Positions 544-11,204 of a stretch of 30,859 nucleotides of DNA are shown here, in pieces. The translations under genes were made by a program, and so were the position numbers. The notes under the pieces were generated by a model, which was not told the DNA's origin, made no database searches, and worked only from the letters and a program-made list of their open reading frames with translations. Origin of the DNA: a virus (Duplodnaviria > Heunggongvirae > Uroviricota > Caudoviricetes); IMG/VR virus record IMGVR_UViG_2740892488_000014; one strand, given 5' to 3'. Each line of letters begins with the position of its first letter. The stretch's first letter is position 1.

Positions 544-1784
544 ATCACAGCCTGTAAGGGCAATGGCGAGTAAGAGTACTGAGTATTTTAATCTCATGAA
601 TTCCCTTTAGAGTAAGGATTGGTTTTTAAGACGCGGTCTGTAATCAGTCCCGAGAGCTACAGTAAACAACGCTGAGCACTGAACGCATCACAGGTAAGGT
701 AAAAGGTGATATCGGCAAAGGCTGTGAAACCTTTAATTCAACAGATGGGAACGGTATGCGCAGGATCCTGTAACGACGCTCCCAAAACCGGAAACCTGTA
801 AGGCATGTTTTCGCTGCTGAACTTAATATACGAACCTGCACTATCATGAACATATTTTATATCGTTATACCCCGAGTGATTGTGCCCGGCAATGGATAGT
901 GTCCTGGAGGAACTATTTCTACTGTAAAAGGTAGATATTTAATTTCAGTTTTGAATTATTCCCTGCTGTTAATAACAATGGCTGTATATGGCACCGAGTA
1001 GGCATTTTTTCGCTTACTGAAGGGCAGCTGTGAGCGAGGAACAGACTTTCCCTACTTCGTTGAGAGTACACCTAGTACAATCAAGGCTAAATGATAAAAA
1101 TATACAAAATATCATATTTATGATATATATAATGGCATTAATCTTATTCTTGGATTACGTTGAAAGGGTAATATTATATTTGTGTAACATAGTTTAGATA
1201 ACAATGCCGTTATGGGGGGGGAAAGACATTTCAACATATTAGCTTTGTATCTAACGCTCATGTAGATCTCGATTTTGAACTTAAAGAACAATTATTTTTT
1301 AGAGAGCAAGGTATTTTTGGGGAACAAAAACATAAAGTAATGGAGAGAGGAGAATGTATCAAAAAATCATCGATTTAATTTAGATTGTCCGTATAGTTGG
1401 GGGTAAGTCGAATCGCTGGGCTACATGGAATATTGTGTCAAGTAAAAATATATTTCAATCTTGCAATAACCGATTGTTGAAAATAATGTCAAATCTTAAT
1501 GGTGAATGGGGAGAATATAATAAACATGAGTCGATATTATGCAAATGGATTTAAATATTTTATACCCGAAGACATAGGGTTTCGAGAGTTCGATGAGACT
1601 ACTTTGAATGCTTTCGAATTTGCTGGCTAAAACATATAGGTTATATCTTACATCTGTTTGTAATGGAGCGTAGATGCGACAAGCTACACCATAATAATCA
1701 TATTATGATATATTGTTAAGTTGTTATGGCATTAAATAAAATTATGTCATTTTGTTAACCAAGCAAGAATCAAAGGACTTTTAG

Positions 1785-2099
1785 ATGGGTACGGCATTAA
1801 TTTCAAGCTTTATTAGTGGTGCAATAGCTATAATCTCTATTGCTATATCTACTTATAATCAGAATAGAATAAACAAGCTCAATGAATCACTGGATGTAAG
1901 GAGAAAACATCAGTACTATATTGAACCGTTAATTCGCTCAGCTTCAGACTTACAAAGCCGTATTTATAATATATTAGAATTGGGGTTCATTGAAGAGTTT
2001 TATCATAATGGGAATAAGCGCCAACAAGATTATGTTATCAACAATACTGTTTTTTCTTTTTTTCCCAGTTTTTTGCATGGACAGAAGCTGCCCGCATAG
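1785..2099 (+). CDS. Hypothetical protein with an N-terminal TM helix; possibly the 5' part of a longer gene fragmented by homopolymer indels
   Basis: 104-aa ORF in the AT-rich island with a hydrophobic N-terminus LISSFISGAIAIISIAI; it ends in a region of T5/T7/T6 runs. Confidence 0.3.
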   Translation: MGTALISSFISGAIAIISIAISTYNQNRINKLNESLDVRRKHQYYIEPLIRSASDLQSRIYNILELGFIEEFYHNGNKRQQDYVINNTVFSFFPSFLHGQKLPA

Positions 2100-2136
2100 A
2101 CATTCAATACCTTAGCCTAGAAAAAAAATAAAAAAA

Positions 2137-2352
2137 ATGAGGGAGTTTATTAGATTACAGAACAATATTAACTCATTAATCCAAACAGACGTCTTTGGTC
2201 AGTATTTTATGTTTTTCATAGGAGAGCAGAGAGCTATTGCAGAAAAGATGCTGATATCAACAGATACTGGATTTGATTGCATAGGTTACGGCAGTTTCAC
2301 AAAGGAAAATTGCTTTATCAATGAGCCATTTTTTTTTAGATTTAAACAATGA
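2137..2352 (+). CDS. Hypothetical protein; possibly the middle part of the same fragmented AT-rich gene
   Basis: 71-aa ORF that immediately follows the A8 A8 runs and ends in a T9 run. A further 41-aa ORF follows at ~2363..2489. Confidence 0.25.
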   Translation: MREFIRLQNNINSLIQTDVFGQYFMFFIGEQRAIAEKMLISTDTGFDCIGYGSFTKENCFINEPFFFRFKQ

Positions 2353-2672
2353 AGTGATAAATATGACAAGAGATATCGGAATTTATAAAGAAAGGCTAAT
2401 CAGAATACAGCACGCGTTAATCGATTTAATTAATTTTCTTGATCCTGGCATGATTCGATTTGACGGAAAAAAATATGGAAAAATATAACCCAGATGATTC
2501 GTATCAAGGTAAGTTGCTATATGTATCAATTTAATTATGGTTGGGTGAAATTTATGTTAATAGTAGCGGAGGGTTAGTTAAAATATGCTCTCAGTGATTT
2601 TTGGATAGTTCTTTTATTTATCATTGAAAGTAAATATGTATAGCTTCAAGATTTACAAGTGAATCTGTTTAT

Positions 2673-2706
2673 TGACAGTCCGCTTATGGCACAGAGCGGA
2701 CTGTCA
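2673..2706. terminator. Perfect 12-bp inverted repeat TGACAGTCCGCT-N10-AGCGGACTGTCA; candidate intrinsic terminator or protein-binding palindrome
   Basis: Both arms read directly from the sequence. A TATTAAATTT tract follows on the + strand. Confidence 0.35.
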
Positions 2707-2904
2707 TATTAAATTTGGCTCCACGCCATAGATGTGTCAGCTCATATCTTATCTAATACACACAATAACTTTCTCATTCTTGGAGAATTATTTTTTTAAG
2801 GGTAGGTGTTGACGTTAGAGCAAAAGAATGGTGATTTTTTTGATGTGTATTACGTTGGAACTGATGGGAATAACTATCTGTTTTCAACGCACTGCTAATT
2901 TATC

Positions 2905-2926
2905 AAGGCCCTTTGATCAGGGCCTT
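2905..2926 (-). terminator. 8-bp stem hairpin AAGGCCCT-ttgatc-AGGGCCTT about 25 nt downstream of the minus-strand 2-TM gene; possible terminator
   Basis: Inverted repeat read from the sequence. No clear U-tract follows it. Confidence 0.3.
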
Positions 2927-2950
2927 CGAAAGACTGTTGGACCGAGAGAG

Positions 2951-3557
2951 TTACTTGCGTTTAAAAAGGTATTTTGTCACGACCAGCACGAGGCCGAATA
3001 CCTCTGTCAAAGTACCGCCCATGTACAACTGTAGTGTTAAATCCTCAAATTCCAGCTTACCTGCGCCGTCGGCAATAAATACACCATTCATTATCAGAAG
3101 TTGGAAAGCAAGGATAATCAGGAACCATTTCCCGTATCGTTTTTTTAGAGCGATTTCTGCTTCAAAATCTTTGTTGTTGAGTTGTTTGCGCTCATGCTCG
3201 GTATCAAGTGAATTCACCTGTTTCACAGATGTGAACTCGGTCAAGATTTTACTCTCAGTACGGGTGACTTGTTGAGAGGGTGTAGCAGTTGGAATTCTTT
3301 TGCTAGACGCAGCTACAGCCATTTTGCGAGCTTCGGCAGCTCTTTTTCTGGCTATTCCGCGAATACGGACAGCCGTTTTTTTTGGGGGCGTGCGAAACCT
3401 TTGGCTGAGGTGAAGCTTCGTCAGGAGACTGAACCGGAGTTTCATCGTCCTCCGGCTCAACCTCTTCTGCTAACTGACGGTGTAGGTTGAGGGAATCCTT
3501 CAGTCTGCGTGCTACTTCCTGTTTGAAACGGCTGTTAAAATCGTCATCCGATGGCAT
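2951..3557 (-). CDS. ~201-aa protein with a charged/acidic N-terminal region and two C-terminal TM helices, encoded immediately downstream of ImmA; frameshifted here in a homopolymer
   Basis: ORFs 3303..3557 and 2951..3460 (both minus) are consecutive parts of one reading frame. They join if the T8 run at ~3376-3383 (A8 on the coding strand) is read as 7: ...HAPKK|TAVRIRG.... The TM segments are WFLIILAFQLLIMNGVFI and LTEVFGLVLVVTKYLF. Confidence 0.6.
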
Positions 3558-3566
3558 TTTAAAGCG

Positions 3567-4056
3567 TTACCCCAACCTCAAGTTCTTTAAACGATAAGTC
3601 ATCGCATCGTCAGATACGCCAAAATAATGCGCCATTATATAACTTGGTTGACCGTCAGCGTGCAGTTTTCTGACCTCATCTACCGGCATCAGAAGTTCTG
3701 CTGCGAACTTGTTTGCAAAAATTTCATCAGGATGCGTTCCGGCGCTTGCGGTTTCGCCACGTAAATCAACGTACTCATATTCATCGCTATGCGATGCTTG
3801 CCGGGCGATGTAATGCCCCAACTCATGCCCACATGAAAAAACGTTGACGAACTTTGTTGTCATCACTGTTTAGAAAGATCGCTGGATCTTGATCTTTTTG
3901 TTTAATCAGTGCGCCAGAAACTTTCCCAGGAAGATCGGTAATAAAAACATCTAATCCCATGTCGTGAGCAATTTTCGCTGGATCAACAGGGAAACCACGC
4001 CCGCACCAGAACGTGTCCAGCACTCGCCGGGCGTGCTCTCTTGGGTTGGTAGCCAT
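3567..4056 (-). CDS. ImmA/IrrE-family (COG2856, M78-like) Zn-metallopeptidase with a HEXXH motif; frameshifted here in a homopolymer
   Basis: ORF 3823..4056 is an N-terminal domain of the kind found in ImmA anti-repressor proteases. ORF 3567..3866 carries HELGH plus a downstream E, i.e. the catalytic domain. The two join as ...VRQRFSCGHELGHY... if the 6-nt run at ~3836-3841 is read as 5. Confidence 0.8.
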
Positions 4057-4130
4057 AGCTCCTCCAGTTACTGCATTACGATTATTGGTTGAAATATAGA
4101 CAGCATGTTCCGTACCACATTCCTGTAAAA

Positions 4131-4145
4131 GTGCAAATTCTGCAC
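4131..4145. promoter_or_regulatory. Palindrome GTGCAAATTCTGCAC about 75 nt upstream of the ImmA start; candidate operator
   Basis: An inverted repeat GTGCA-N5-TGCAC read directly from the sequence. A related motif GTGCAAATAGTGCAG occurs at 4897..4911. Confidence 0.35.
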
Positions 4146-4432
4146 TTCTGGTACGATATTAACTGTTAGTAGTAAAGTCTTCCAGATAAATCACTTTAAA
4201 ATCTTGTGAATTGCTTGCTTTTTACGCTGTATTGTGGATGGTTCAATGTTTCCAGTAAAAACATACATGATAATCATGAGTTTAGTGTTTTTTTAGGCGT
4301 CTATATGTTTCTGGAAAATACAGGTCTAACCTGATCTTATCGTTGAGATTTTTTGTACTCAGTATGCGTGAACGATTCGACCAGGTGACTGTGTACGTGA
4401 AGAAGACCGCCCTTAATATTTTAAATGTGCAA

Positions 4433-4448
4433 CCCCTCAGAAGAGGGG
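4433..4448 (-). terminator. Rho-independent-type hairpin CCCCTC-agaa-GAGGGG directly downstream of the minus-strand HTH gene
   Basis: GC-rich 6-bp stem with a 4-nt loop, 7 nt after the stop at 4455. An A/T-rich tract follows on the minus strand. Confidence 0.5.
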
Positions 4449-4454
4449 CTACTC

Positions 4455-4688
4455 TCACTTCTGCAGTATCTCGCCAATACCTGCCAGATTCTCGTCCATC
4501 TTGTCACCGTTTTCGATAAGGATGGAGTTGAGCCGATTCAGTTGCATAGCAATTTCAAGTTTGATTAAGGTATCCACCGATACACCAGTTTCTTTTGCTA
4601 ACTTAGTAAGAGCCGCAGCTCGATTGGCTAAATTAAAATCATCGAACTCATAACGACTTCTGCACGGCTGGTTGCCTAACGTACCCAT
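4455..4688 (-). CDS. Small (77 aa) protein with a helix-turn-helix-like segment; candidate XRE/Cro-like regulator partner of ImmA
   Basis: The segment LTKLAKETGVSVDTLIKLE has an HTH-like pattern. It is co-oriented with ImmA and 400 bp upstream of it, with its own terminator. Confidence 0.45.
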   Translation of the reverse strand: MGTLGNQPCRSRYEFDDFNLANRAAALTKLAKETGVSVDTLIKLEIAMQLNRLNSILIENGDKMDENLAGIGEILQK

Positions 4689-4896
4689 AGTGATTCCTCA
4701 TGATATAAAGACCCAACAATATAAATTACCAGGCACATCATAAGATAGGGTTCCAGCCCATATTTTCAAATATTTGCAAGTATCACCGTTCAGTCTAAAA
4801 AGTTGGATGATGATTTAACGAGCCATAACAAAACCCTGCCTCGGAGGTTTTTTTCTTTTTTATAGAACTCAGCGGCGTGAAAACGAATAATAAATT

Positions 4897-4911
4897 GTGC
4901 AAATAGTGCAG
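4897..4911. promoter_or_regulatory. Second copy of the operator-like motif GTGCAAATAGTGCAG, about 20 nt upstream of the 4933 gene start
   Basis: 12 of 15 positions match the palindrome at 4131..4145. Confidence 0.3.
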
Positions 4912-4932
4912 TTTTTATTATTCGAGGTAATT

Positions 4933-5574
4933 ATGAAAACCTTCTATGAGGACTGGCCTGAAACTTTCGTTAGCCGGTTAGATATGTTACGGGCGTTGGA
5001 TGATCGCGGTTCGACCCGGAGGCTCTATCTTGAACGGACCGGGGCAATATTTGACGCTCTGGCAGAAGAGATACGTACAGTCGTTGCCGGGCATCCTGAA
5101 ATCGACGTGAGTGAACTTGATATCGGGCCGCTGTATCGCTATTACAAACGTGGAGAAAAGGGGAATCCGCTGGCTGACTTACTTATTGAGTTGGCTCCAC
5201 CAACTTGTGAACGGGTTCGTATATCTCCTGAAGTGTACATAATCCCGTATCTGTTTTTTGCACTGTTGATAGCGCAAGGCGCTGACAACGATGCCCGCGA
5301 TTTTTTCAATATGATGATGCGACCGTTAATCATCGCCTACCGTTTCAAACAACTGGCGCGATACCTGGGAACAAAGGGCGGAGGACGACCACAGCACAGA
5401 TTAAAAAGCGAAGCCATTGAACTGGCTGATCGTTTTTTTACTGAAAACCCGACAGCGCCATTATCGCGTGGCGTGCAATACATATCCGGTATTTTTGTGG
5501 CGAAATACTCTGACCCACCTGCAGCGTCGACGATTAGAAAATGGTTAATTCCAATTTACAGGAGTGATAAATAA
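4933..5574 (+). CDS. Hypothetical protein, 213 aa, no family recognised
   Basis: Long ORF with a good SD, GAGGT 5 nt before the ATG at 4933. The track ORF 4897..5574 uses a GTG upstream. Codon usage resembles the flanking genes. Confidence 0.7.
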   Translation: MKTFYEDWPETFVSRLDMLRALDDRGSTRRLYLERTGAIFDALAEEIRTVVAGHPEIDVSELDIGPLYRYYKRGEKGNPLADLLIELAPPTCERVRISPEVYIIPYLFFALLIAQGADNDARDFFNMMMRPLIIAYRFKQLARYLGTKGGGRPQHRLKSEAIELADRFFTENPTAPLSRGVQYISGIFVAKYSDPPAASTIRKWLIPIYRSDK

Positions 5575-5581
5575 TGACCAT

Positions 5582-5610
5582 AAACGGTTTAATCCCCTAT
5601 AAAACCGTTT
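5582..5610 (+). terminator. Inverted repeat AAACGGTTT-N11-AAACCGTTT 8 nt after the stop of the 4933..5574 gene; weak terminator or binding site
   Basis: 9-bp arms read from the sequence, followed by AATAAAATT. Confidence 0.35.
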
Positions 5611-5667
5611 AATAAAATTCACGACGTGAATATAATTGTTCATTATTCCCTCATTGTATTTGGCGTT

Positions 5668-5699
5668 ATGACAAATGCCATAAAATACTGTATAAATAT
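5668..5699 (+). promoter_or_regulatory. Rightward sigma70-like promoter (-35 ATGACA, 17-nt spacer, -10 TATAAA) overlapping the left half of a LexA box that is split by the ISL3 insertion
   Basis: Joining 5699 to 7593 reconstitutes TACTGTATAAATATACAGGT, i.e. CTGT-N8-ACAG with the TA-rich centre of the E. coli SOS-box consensus TACTGTATATATATACAGTA. The -10 overlaps the box. Confidence 0.6.
5692..5699. repeat. Target-site duplication ATAAATAT, left copy
   Basis: An identical 8-mer directly flanks both ends of the ISL3 element. ISL3-family elements make 8-bp TSDs. Confidence 0.8.
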
Positions 5700-5727
5700 G
5701 GGTCTTCCCCGATCATGGTGGGAAGAC

Positions 5728-6948
5728 TCAGTACGCCATATTCAGTTTCCCATAGTGGAACATAACTCCCAGTTTAAAGCGTTCCCGGTTTCGGTATCCC
5801 CTGGCCTTTATCCTCAGCAGTCTGATCTTGCTGTTCAGCGCCTCCGCATTTCCATTCGAGACGCGATGACGCATTGCATTCAGTATTCCGTATAACCGTT
5901 TTTTAATGGTTTTCGCTGCGTTTTTCATCATCGGCACATCACATTCAGACGCCAGCGATATCCACTGCAACCAGTCATTCCTGCGTTCTGTGCTCCAGGG
6001 GCGATCCCAGATATTTTTTGCCAGCTCTTTCAGTGTCCAGCACTGGCTTGTCTGTTGCATCTGTTCCCGCAACCACATCAGCTTTTCCTGCCGGGACTCA
6101 GTCATCCATTTGTCGCTGTACTGCCACAGGAAGCGGGTACCTTTGGCCTGACGACGACTTTCAACAGGGAGGTGCGGATGTTCATTCTGGCGGGTTTTAT
6201 CAACCACTTCGCCCAGTTGCTTCGCCACATGGAAGCGATCGAAGGCGATTTTCTCGACCGCATTGGGTAAATGGATACGCGCTGCTCTTATATAGCCCGC
6301 ATTCATGTCCATCGACAGTGTTTTGATGGCCAACAACTGACTGTCAGTAAGCGAACGGAGATAGCTGGCAAGACTCTCTGTGCCACGATCATCGGTTAAT
6401 GCCAGTGCCCGCCCGTCGCGATCAGATACCACGGTTATATACCTATGCCCTTTTTTAAAGGCGACTTCGTCTACATTCATATGACGCACTGATAAAGGCT
6501 TTTTAATCCGCGACAGGCCTCGCTTAACCGCGCGGGTCATGATGCCGTCAACGGCATTCCAGCTAAGTTTAAGTTGTTTTCTGACCGCATCAACGGTGCT
6601 GATTTTAAGCCATGAGAGCACGAACGATTCGAACAGCAGAGTGTACCGACTGCCGGAACCTGCCCACGGTACAGGCAGAGTCTGGCAGCCATGCTCCGGG
6701 CACATAACGCGGGGAACATCGGCTTCTACTAATGTCATGAACTGGCAGGTATCAAGGTGGCGCCATTTACGATGTCGGTGATCGTGAACAGAACAGGATT
6801 TCCTGCAGGTCGGACAGGTTAACTGAGTATTTTCAGCAATTCCGACTGTAACAGTAACGGAACCTGCATTTTCATCGAGGGTAAGGGATTTAACCTGCCA
6901 TGGTGCAGTCAGGTTAAGGATATGGGCATAGAGGGATTTTTCGTCCAT
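5728..6948 (-). CDS. ISL3-family transposase, 406 aa
   Basis: N-terminal Zn-ribbon (CPTCRKSC...CPEHGC) plus DDE domain, typical of the IS204/IS1001/IS1096/IS1165 (ISL3) family. Confidence 0.95.
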   Translation of the reverse strand: MDEKSLYAHILNLTAPWQVKSLTLDENAGSVTVTVGIAENTQLTCPTCRKSCSVHDHRHRKWRHLDTCQFMTLVEADVPRVMCPEHGCQTLPVPWAGSGSRYTLLFESFVLSWLKISTVDAVRKQLKLSWNAVDGIMTRAVKRGLSRIKKPLSVRHMNVDEVAFKKGHRYITVVSDRDGRALALTDDRGTESLASYLRSLTDSQLLAIKTLSMDMNAGYIRAARIHLPNAVEKIAFDRFHVAKQLGEVVDKTRQNEHPHLPVESRRQAKGTRFLWQYSDKWMTESRQEKLMWLREQMQQTSQCWTLKELAKNIWDRPWSTERRNDWLQWISLASECDVPMMKNAAKTIKKRLYGILNAMRHRVSNGNAEALNSKIRLLRIKARGYRNRERFKLGVMFHYGKLNMAY

Positions 6949-6966
6949 ATAATTTCATTCTGAAGC

Positions 6967-7485
6967 TTACTTTAAACTGATATTATTATTTTTTGCCCAC
7001 TTTCTTAATCTTCCATTAGCGTTGGCGTAAGGCGAAGATGTGTTAAATGAGATCATTCTCCCCATCGTCCATTTTGTGTACCATGGTCTTCCATACAAAA
7101 TATCATCGGTACGATCATTAATAAGGTTCACAATCTCATTTTTTACAGTCTGAAGTTCAGCTACTAACAACTCATAACTTAACTCACTGTAATCTGAGTA
7201 AAATTTTTGAGCAAGAAGGCCAAGCTGATTCCATTTATAGCCAGTTTCCGGAAAATCGACAGGCAGACCTTTAGCATCAGAAGCGATCCACTTTACAACA
7301 AGAGCATTCCATCCAAGCAGATACGAAACGAGATCACGAACACTCATCTCCGTTCCTTTGGCGTGTCCGTCCATTGATTTATCTGAAGTAATTTCTGGTG
7401 GGATTGTGTTGAGGTAACTAATTAATTTACTAAAATTTTTATCAATAGCTAAAAGCAGTTCAGCTTTTGTTTGCGGCACACTCAT
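6967..7485 (-). CDS. ClbS/DfsB-family (DUF1706) four-helix-bundle protein, 172 aa, carried as passenger of the ISL3 element
   Basis: Length and motifs such as ...KAELLLAIDKNFSKL..., ...DFPETGYKWNQLG... and ...YGRPWYTKWTMGRMI... recall the ClbS colibactin self-resistance family (from memory). It has its own SD GAGGG. Confidence 0.55.
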   Translation of the reverse strand: MSVPQTKAELLLAIDKNFSKLISYLNTIPPEITSDKSMDGHAKGTEMSVRDLVSYLLGWNALVVKWIASDAKGLPVDFPETGYKWNQLGLLAQKFYSDYSELSYELLVAELQTVKNEIVNLINDRTDDILYGRPWYTKWTMGRMISFNTSSPYANANGRLRKWAKNNNISLK

Positions 7486-7584
7486 AAGAATTCCCTCTCA
7501 TGTAAAAAGAGACACCATAAAGGTACTGTGTGGTGTTTGAAAATCGCTCAATTATGTACCACCCACCACAACAGGGGAAGACCC

Positions 7585-10943: not shown

Positions 10944-11204
10944 TTAAGGTAACTGATTTGACCATTTTGTTGCGCGCCAGTTGTTCTGAACCATAATCTT
11001 CTGAAGTATCTCATCTGAAGGCTCTGCTTCGCCGCTTAGCCATTCTCTTAAAGTTGAACAATTTAGATAAGAGGAGTTCGCACGATAAAAAGATACGATG
11101 GCGTCCTCTGATAACTTCTCAGGAAACTTTTTTGGGTCAGCTTCTTTTAATATTACGCTCATTAAGGCTTCAATTTTTTCTCTGTTCATTTTTTGCGTTC
11201 TCAT
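10944..11204 (-). CDS. Hypothetical protein (81-86 aa) encoded antisense to the late operon in an AT-rich segment; a moron-like insertion
   Basis: The only plausible ORF in the AT-rich 10.93-11.33 kb segment between the lysis and packaging genes. No family recognised. Confidence 0.4.
   Translation of the reverse strand: MRTQKMNREKIEALMSVILKEADPKKFPEKLSEDAIVSFYRANSSYLNCSTLREWLSGEAEPSDEILQKIMVQNNWRATKWSNQLP

Follow-up and report, generated by a model that had tools for sequence, protein, structure and literature searches.

The stretch of DNA analyzed here (the window; 30,859 nucleotides, nt; IMG/VR record IMGVR_UViG_2740892488_000014) is a lambdoid prophage of Escherichia coli that carries a gene for a short zinc peptidase of the ImmA/IrrE type (family M78), followed on the same strand by a gene for a small protein with two predicted transmembrane (TM) helices. 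These two genes occupy a variable slot of the prophage as cargo and probably form a self-contained RosmerTA-type module (toxin–antitoxin or abortive infection). As judged from sequence and profile comparisons, both proteins are homologous to gp32 and gp33 of Gordonia phage Kita, the RmrA_D25/RmrT_D5 pair tested by Ernits et al. 2023 (PMC10440598), and toxicity, neutralization and anti-phage activity are predicted for the E. coli pair by this homology. In an initial annotation of the window, the two genes had been grouped with an upstream gene for a 77-amino-acid (aa), helix-turn-helix (HTH)-like protein and a shared operator-like motif into a candidate damage-responsive or defense cassette. 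The 2-TM protein stands as a plausible membrane effector, and a defense role is judged likely.

Both reading frames are interrupted in the window, and the protein analyses were done on the intact forms (162 aa, WP_000224749.1, for the protease; 201 aa, WP_001138663.1, for the membrane protein). The protease matches Pfam Peptidase_M78 with an expect value (E) of 7.7e-18 (64.9 bits against a cutoff of 22), has no domain beyond it and belongs to the PHROG family "metallo-protease". Its HELGH motif (H77-E78-x-x-H81) and a downstream glutamate, E111, are invariant across the clade. The top PADLOC match is capP, at E 2.4e-25, and is limited to positions 3–151 of the 242-position profile. In addition, 15 PADLOC RmrA models match the protease, down to E 5.8e-12; these models are 357–400 positions long and are matched in the peptidase part only (profile positions ~145–291).

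The 201-aa protein has no match in Pfam, PADLOC or NCBIfam. Its hydropathy profile places TM1 at residues ~143–164 and TM2 at ~174–194, with positive charge at both cytoplasmic sides, and the N-terminal ~140 residues are therefore predicted to face the cytoplasm. This N-terminal region is charged and largely disordered. The AlphaFold model contains helices at residues 4–32, 65–83, 119–164 and 173–199, with two disordered stretches around a weak helix; the long helix 119–164 continues into TM1, and TM2 lies within 173–199. In an alignment of 21 relatives (A1), the C-terminal hairpin is nearly invariant, with the motif L-T-L-Q-L-Y-M-G-G-T-L-T-E-V-F-G-L-V-L-V-V-T-K-Y-L-F-K-R-K, and the middle of the protein is hypervariable in both length and sequence. 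An exhaustive profile search recovered 713 representatives of this toxin family at E ≤0.001 and 182 at E ≤1e-10. Family members are mostly 100–170 aa long, and many have very short N-terminal regions (proteins of 57–110 aa).

In agreement with the initial annotation, the protease and 2-TM genes make up one conserved operon, with the start of the second gene at 3557, 9 nt past the stop of the first. Conservation of this pairing, which the annotation had named as a point to be surveyed, was found throughout: in 22 of 22 loci that encode a full 2-TM homolog, an M78 peptidase gene lies directly upstream on the same strand, at a spacing that ranges from a 12-nt gap to an overlap of tens of nt (~100 nt as called in locus L053). 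Nine of these loci, each encoding a relative of the 2-TM protein, came from a scan in which a single genome stood for each species; their sources are Escherichia whittamii, Leclercia, Buttiauxella, Gallibacterium, Microbulbifer and, in four cases, metagenome-assembled genomes (MAGs), among them Thalassotalea and Desulfuromonas. A scan of viral contigs gave 13 further full-length copies. Among five distant representatives of the family that were sampled, four have a 163–183-aa Peptidase_M78 gene immediately upstream, and the fifth has an overlapping upstream gene that is cut by the contig end. Viewed from the protease side, the toxin family lies downstream in 20 of the 23 closest viral-contig homologs (one of the exceptions is truncated by the end of its contig). 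Farther homologs have different small proteins downstream, with a TM segment at the C-terminus and often with charge at the N-terminus, for example in Mycobacterium phage Che9c.

The hosts of the pair extend from Gammaproteobacteria to the Desulfuromonas MAG, and actinophages carry it as well. Flanking genes are wholly different between loci: the pair is found at prophage ends next to integrases, on other phage contigs that carry tail or portal-like genes, after sucCD and, in Leclercia, beside an ars-type operon, and some flanks have no recognizable phage genes. No recurring HTH gene was found beside the pair in the diverse contexts examined. Because the flanks differ wholly and no HTH gene recurs, the conserved unit consists of two genes and not three. 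As a separate observation, a short M78 protease is followed by a different small membrane protein in the P2-like phage NC_070905.1 (L091, 2450–3626) and in phage Che9c (L061, 2917–3812). The data on the short-protease branch suggest that partner swapping among TM toxins is common there.

The initial annotation knew of no characterized system with an ImmA and 2-TM pairing; the Kita pair is a tested homolog (PMC10440598). Kita gp32 was found by tblastn with the Che9c protease, and the accessions were confirmed in the supplement of Ernits et al. (RmrA_D25, YP_009301393.1; RmrT_D5, YP_009301394.1). The gene for gp32 (178 aa) overlaps that for gp33 (119 aa). Over 157 aa, the E. coli protease and gp32 share 43% identity (E 1e-41). 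For the toxin, an hhalign comparison of profile A1 with gp33 gives E 1.5e-4 and a probability of 52% over 77 columns, in an alignment that takes in the juxtamembrane helix and both TM helices of gp33, and an hmmsearch with the toxin profile against the open reading frames (ORFs) of 57 loci scores gp33 at 18.7 bits (E 2.9e-4). The toxin profile and gp33 have T-x-x-E-V-x-G-L...T-x-x-L-F-K in common. The proposed toxin homology is strengthened by the 43% identity of the syntenic protease. In PADLOC, Kita RmrA behaves like the E. coli protease: capP ranks first, followed by RmrA in the peptidase part only. The capP match therefore does not argue for a CapP-like role.

The Kita proteins provide the functional reference for the E. 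coli pair. The C-terminal region of RmrT_D5 is localized to the membrane, and expression of the toxin leads to an immediate stop of translation, transcription and replication, with rapid membrane depolarization and permeabilization (PMC10440598). The full-length toxin alone is toxic; co-expression of the protease lowers this toxicity and neutralizes it only in part, and the pair defends E. coli against phages Bas54 and Bas59 (PMC10440598). In each system, the gene for a short M78 peptidase that has no HTH domain (162 aa in E. coli, 178 aa in Kita) overlaps or lies a few nt ahead of the gene for a small protein whose N-terminus is acidic or disordered and whose C-terminus forms a two-helix membrane hairpin; both pairs are phage-borne cargo with equal gene order. 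They differ in that the E. coli toxin is longer (201 aa versus 119 aa), and its conserved N-terminal helix and its basic, hypervariable middle part have no counterpart in Kita. The phylum of the host also differs, and the similarity of the toxins is visible only with profiles.

The E. coli pair agrees with the definition of RosmerTA. The protease is an M78/COG2856 zinc peptidase with an intact HExxH motif (the window copy being frameshifted at 3836), its partner is adjacent and co-oriented in a conserved two-gene operon, and this partner is homologous to a validated RmrT, with a match that is moderate by itself. With canonical RosmerTA (Millman et al. 2022), the pair shares the zinc-peptidase antitoxin (M78/COG2856), a variable toxin of unknown fold, the two-gene operon and occurrence in defense and mobile contexts, whereas the PADLOC RmrA models are 357–400 positions long and many NetFlax D25 proteins have an N-terminal HTH. 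The accessions of the E. coli pair were not found in the portion of the NetFlax supplementary tables that was covered. An Xre-type HTH fused to the N-terminus of the peptidase is missing here, as the 162-aa protease matches the peptidase part alone; because the experimentally validated Kita RmrA also lacks such a fusion, it is not required for function. PanT_D11 of Panacea (PanA/PanT), which served as the comparator for RmrT_D5 in Ernits et al., is likewise a small membrane-depolarizing toxin, but its antitoxin, with a Panacea domain, is unrelated. The peptidase-type toxin–antitoxin pair of the Rousset 2021 CRISPR interference (CRISPRi) paper was considered as a match and rejected, as both the strain and the proteins are different.

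Based on this homology, the second gene would encode a small inner-membrane protein with its N-terminal ~140 residues in the cytoplasm and a C-terminal hairpin, containing conserved polar residues, that would oligomerize and depolarize or permeabilize the membrane in the manner of RmrT_D5. The first gene would encode a short, HTH-less M78 zinc peptidase that, like RmrA_D25, would prevent the toxin from doing harm as long as the cell is uninfected. Some phages, on infection, would cause the toxin to be released, and the cell would die or stop growing before the phage cycle is completed. Because the protease has no DNA-binding domain and the pair has no conserved repressor partner, we infer that neutralization most likely acts on the toxin protein itself; it could do so by binding or cleaving the cytoplasmic region, which is within reach of a protease in the cytoplasm, and ClpXP may help. 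In the wider Rosmer family, ΔrmrA was unobtainable (bioRxiv 10.1101/2022.05.11.491447), and transposon screens found rmrA essential in three species of Pectobacteriaceae, with clpX required only in the strains that carry Rosmer (bioRxiv 10.64898/2025.12.09.693261).

The opposite polarity was also considered, in which the 2-TM protein would be synthesized as an inactive precursor, held in check by its long N-terminal region, and the protease, upon a phage cue, would cleave it to free a pore-forming hairpin. The long, disordered and hypervariable N-terminal region, set against a near-invariant hairpin, would suit an inhibitory or sensing part that can be removed, proteases of the ImmA family are activated by signals, and the Kita "antitoxin" neutralizes its toxin only partly. 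An activating protease is nevertheless improbable, given that the full-length Kita toxin is toxic alone and less so when the protease is co-expressed (PMC10440598), that rmrA of the wider family is undeletable and essential, and that many family members, at 57–110 aa, have little N-terminus to remove. Returning to the protease as an antitoxin, a more specific version of the proposal is that the short, HTH-less Rosmer-like branch neutralizes its toxin post-translationally, with the M78 protease acting directly on the cytoplasmic region, perhaps with ClpXP, and that the hypervariable N-terminal linker of enterobacterial toxins is an evolving surface for phages or for phage sensing. This version is offered tentatively and is somewhat unlikely to hold in full; if true, the membrane protein would be the first known direct substrate or partner of an ImmA/IrrE-family protease.

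Several observations weigh against assignment of the pair to RosmerTA. Neutralization by the Kita antitoxin is incomplete, and AlphaFold failed to model the Kita complex (PMC10440598). The homology of the toxin to RmrT_D5 is moderate when taken alone (the hhalign probability of 52%) and leans on synteny. No PADLOC model matches either the E. coli or the Kita toxin, and no curated definition consequently covers the pair. Finally, both genes are frameshifted in the window, and, if these frameshifts are real, the module is dead here.

The frameshifts were evaluated against a reference copy of the prophage in E. coli SK1144 (locus L001). All three minus-strand genes lie where the initial annotation had located them, but the protease and 2-TM genes are not open frames in the window: an extra A at 3836 (A6 for A5) splits the protease gene into ORFs of 77 and 99 aa, and an extra T at 3376 (T8 for T7) splits the 2-TM gene into ORFs of 84 and 169 aa. 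Relative to the reference, the 5.1 kb from 544 to 5699 contain no substitutions and nine single-base indels (at 1214, 2050, 2057, 2121, 2130, 2329, 3376, 3836 and 4848), all nine of which fall in homopolymer runs and eight of which are insertions in A or T runs. Intergenic DNA is also affected, and five of the nine lie within a neighboring gene for a 232-aa protein. Over the following 11.9 kb there are 2 mismatches and 6 gaps. Because substitutions are absent and all differences are single-base homopolymer indels, the two frameshifts are most likely sequencing errors, as judged from this alignment; the assembly behind the window looks unpolished, and any frameshifted gene in it is to be distrusted.

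That the window instead holds a decayed pseudogene pair, with both genes truly frameshifted and no current function, would fit the interruption of both ORFs, the joint loss of toxin and antitoxin as a viable route of decay and the insertion sequences (IS) also carried by this prophage. The pattern of differences in both the 5.1-kb and the 11.9-kb alignments points instead to systematic read error, and the intact 162-aa and 201-aa proteins are annotated in the reference and among the matches listed, which makes genuine decay improbable as well. Intact versions of both proteins are present in more than 400 complete E. coli genomes. The window region 2700–5600 is matched in 454 of 5426 complete E. 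coli genomes (~8%), always on the chromosome; a single match spans at least 80% of the query in 410 of the 454, and the best match is at least 99% identical in 414 genomes. Human isolates are numerous among the matches listed. Disruption of the toxin by IS1 in five E. coli genomes (for example AVS0193, L097, 526–1223) was considered and rejected, as the insertions lie just downstream of the toxin gene and both genes are intact.

In CapP and IrrE, a peptidase is combined with an HTH and a GAF domain, and its substrate is a linked HTH repressor in control of a divergent operon (bioRxiv 10.1101/2022.04.27.489752). The initial annotation had pointed to circuits of this type, CapH/CapP and ImmR/ImmA. 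In a rival reading along these lines, the pair would be part of a damage-responsive switch: on a signal, the protease would cleave a DNA-binding repressor, either the 77-aa protein or that of the prophage, and thereby de-repress the 2-TM effector or the prophage. Cleavage of a linked repressor is the classical activity of ImmA-family proteases (bioRxiv 10.1101/2022.04.27.489752), the protease matches capP best (E 2.4e-25), a near-palindrome lies upstream of its gene, and the repressor of this prophage type, an HTH protein of 130 aa with no annotated peptidase domain, would need an outside inducer. The capP match is non-discriminating, however, as the validated Kita RmrA is likewise capP-best, and at 162 aa the protease has no room for the three-domain arrangement, its match to capP positions 3–151 of 242 being too short to include the central HTH and the GAF domain. 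The pair shares the peptidase superfamily and the capP match with CBASS-associated CapH/CapP and with DdrO/IrrE, but it lacks GAF and HTH domains, a conserved repressor and a divergent defense operon: no conserved HTH gene adjoins it in the contexts examined, and the 77-aa gene is co-oriented, is not HTH-like and swaps independently of the pair.

A comparison with ImmR/ImmA of ICEBs1 and phage phi105 gives the same result. These elements also carry an M78 anti-repressor-type protease, but ImmA is described as acting on the HTH repressor ImmR of its own element to control excision, whereas the protease described here moves with a membrane protein. In L001, the region lies inside the lambdoid prophage between replication genes on one side and DUF1367, DUF1364 and antiterminator Q genes on the other, and the HTH repressor, a cro-like gene and a YdaT gene are ~10 kb from the pair. 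The immunity region at that distance also encodes an ORF6N-domain protein, which we take to be a plausible antirepressor. The pair further occurs in sequence unrelated to the prophage (the ars-type operon in Leclercia, after sucCD, other phage contigs). With neither a conserved HTH companion nor the HTH and GAF domains of CapP, a repressor-cleavage circuit is very improbable, and the two-gene toxin–antitoxin assignment is retained.

The 77-aa gene has the orientation given in the initial annotation and is separated from the protease gene by 398 nt, in which no conserved small ORF is evident (Table 1). The HTH-like character attributed to its product was not borne out. The best Pfam match, MerR, is below threshold at E 0.13, PADLOC and NCBIfam give nothing, and a sequence search of the Protein Data Bank (PDB) returned only designed repeat proteins and chance matches. 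The AlphaFold model (mean predicted local distance difference test score, pLDDT, of 80) has a disordered N-terminus, a helix at 17–34, a G-V-S turn and a long helix at 38–76, which together form a two-helix hairpin; Foldseek found nothing in the PDB below E 4. The 77-aa family comprises 15 clusters, almost all from E. coli, and the long C-terminal helix is its most conserved part. Proteins of the ribbon-helix-helix fold typically have a G-x-S/T/N turn that joins two helices, and the non-significant Foldseek matches include Arc, CopG and VapB-type proteins. Based on the G-V-S turn and a possibly strand-forming N-terminus of the model, the protein may be ribbon-helix-helix-like, which is a lead rather than a result. 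The gene is missing from L002 and L015, where the pair is present at 95–98% DNA identity, whereas L024 and L025 have the gene but carry other cargo in place of the pair; a three-gene cassette with an HTH partner is thus not supported.

The promoter, and an operator if there is one, presumably lie in the non-coding region that accompanies the pair on its upstream side. No sigma-70 promoter was found upstream of the protease gene in a consensus scan, the overall counts of the promoter and terminator scan were not above those of shuffled sequences, and Rfam gave no match on 2500–5700 at E ≤1. Both copies of the motif proposed as a shared operator are present, but their recurrence is barely above chance: four matches with at most 3 mismatches were found versus 1.15 expected, a count equaled in 3 of 100 shuffles, and for a 12-base core, chosen post hoc, at least two matches occurred in 2 of 100 shuffles. 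The palindrome upstream of the protease is restricted to the E. coli and E. whittamii copies, is identical in L002 and is absent upstream of the more distant pairs when all loci are searched. The second copy is the variable loop of a conserved hairpin with 11-bp arms. This hairpin lies immediately before the ribosome-binding site of a divergent gene for a 213-aa protein, and its 3′ arm runs into GAGG. In the five-locus alignment, the arms are kept and the loop varies at 4 positions among otherwise near-identical loci. An operator common to both sites is not supported, although the E. coli copies may have one. The hairpin region may be a translational or transcriptional control element. In addition, a terminator-like hairpin with a T-run is seen ~40 nt upstream of it (about 4833–4860).

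Table 1 Features of the peptidase–membrane protein pair and its surroundings in the window
Feature	Position	Strand	Evidence or remark
201-aa membrane protein gene, predicted toxin (RmrT_D5-like)	2951..3557	-	Family alignment A1, hydropathy, AlphaFold, hhalign
Last ~82 nt of the toxin gene, right-hand cassette-exchange boundary	2952..3033	-	Isolated remnants elsewhere
Short M78 (ImmA/IrrE-type) zinc peptidase gene, predicted antitoxin (RmrA-like)	3567..4056	-	Pfam, PADLOC, HELGH, identity to Kita
Upstream non-coding region travelling with the pair (E. coli, E. whittamii)	4057..4318	-	BLAST block shared with L002 and L015
Near-palindrome GTGCAAATTCTGCAC, candidate operator	4131..4145	.	74 nt upstream of the ImmA start codon
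77-aa gene, separately exchangeable module outside the conserved pair	4455..4688	-	WP_000536919.1, phrog_5550
Conserved hairpin, arms CGAATAATAAA / TTTATTATTCG	4884..4924	+	Inverted repeat I5; five-locus alignment
Second motif copy GTGCAAATAGTGCAG	4897-4911		Hairpin loop

The boundaries of BLAST matches divide this part of the prophage into three separately exchangeable blocks: the divergent 213-aa gene, the 77-aa block (~4832–4319) and the protease/toxin block, which is common to L002 and L015 and corresponds to 4318–2929 of the window. The pair occupies a slot that holds known defense genes in sister prophages. In L024 and L025, an NsnA / PD-T4-2_A / GmrSD_N-like gene takes its place; in L024, this gene matches PADLOC NsnA (E 4.6e-41), PD-T4-2_A and Pfam GmrSD_N, and is accompanied (2976–7008) by three genes of unknown function. 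Their products are 204, 182 and 242 aa long; the 182-aa one has an R-x4-H motif that looks HEPN-like only by eye, and the 242-aa one is a membrane protein. Copies of the ~82-nt toxin end are found in isolation in L001 (8830–8907, after an LprI-like gene) and in L024 (5005–5084 and 8732–8812), and remnants of 25–28 codons of the toxin gene occur in L024–L032, often just after an LprI-like gene. On the basis of these sequence remnants, the toxin end looks like a recombination anchor for the swapping of cargo cassettes in this prophage family.

Other features of the window lie outside the pair. The neighboring gene for the 232-aa protein (WP_000536231.1, phrog_5606) is at 1785–2488 on the plus strand, where it is fragmented, and at 11091–11789 in L001. 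Its product is hydrophobic in an N-terminal segment and weakly matches PADLOC RTasTM, a DRT-associated membrane protein (E 1.8e-5), and the gene may be another defense-type cargo gene. A fragment of an IS3-family transposase with rve domains is found at 31–513, and leftward of position 544 the window stops matching the reference prophage. Between the 213-aa gene and a 59-aa gene, an insertion missing in the reference (5700–7584) contains an ISL3-family transposase (5728–6948, minus strand) and a DUF1706 passenger gene (6967–7485, minus strand).

The cassette is carried in a prophage of ~8% of complete E. coli genomes, and the PADLOC models used match its protease only. The toxin family is large and has no Pfam, NCBIfam or PADLOC annotation, yet it is consistently paired with a short M78 protease. 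The pair is probably a further, enterobacterial member of the known RosmerTA kind and opens no new category. Its link to Kita leads to a checkable prediction, namely that of a membrane-depolarizing toxin, a protease antitoxin and narrow-spectrum phage defense, and the pair would offer a clean system for how an ImmA-type protease controls a partner that is not a transcription factor.

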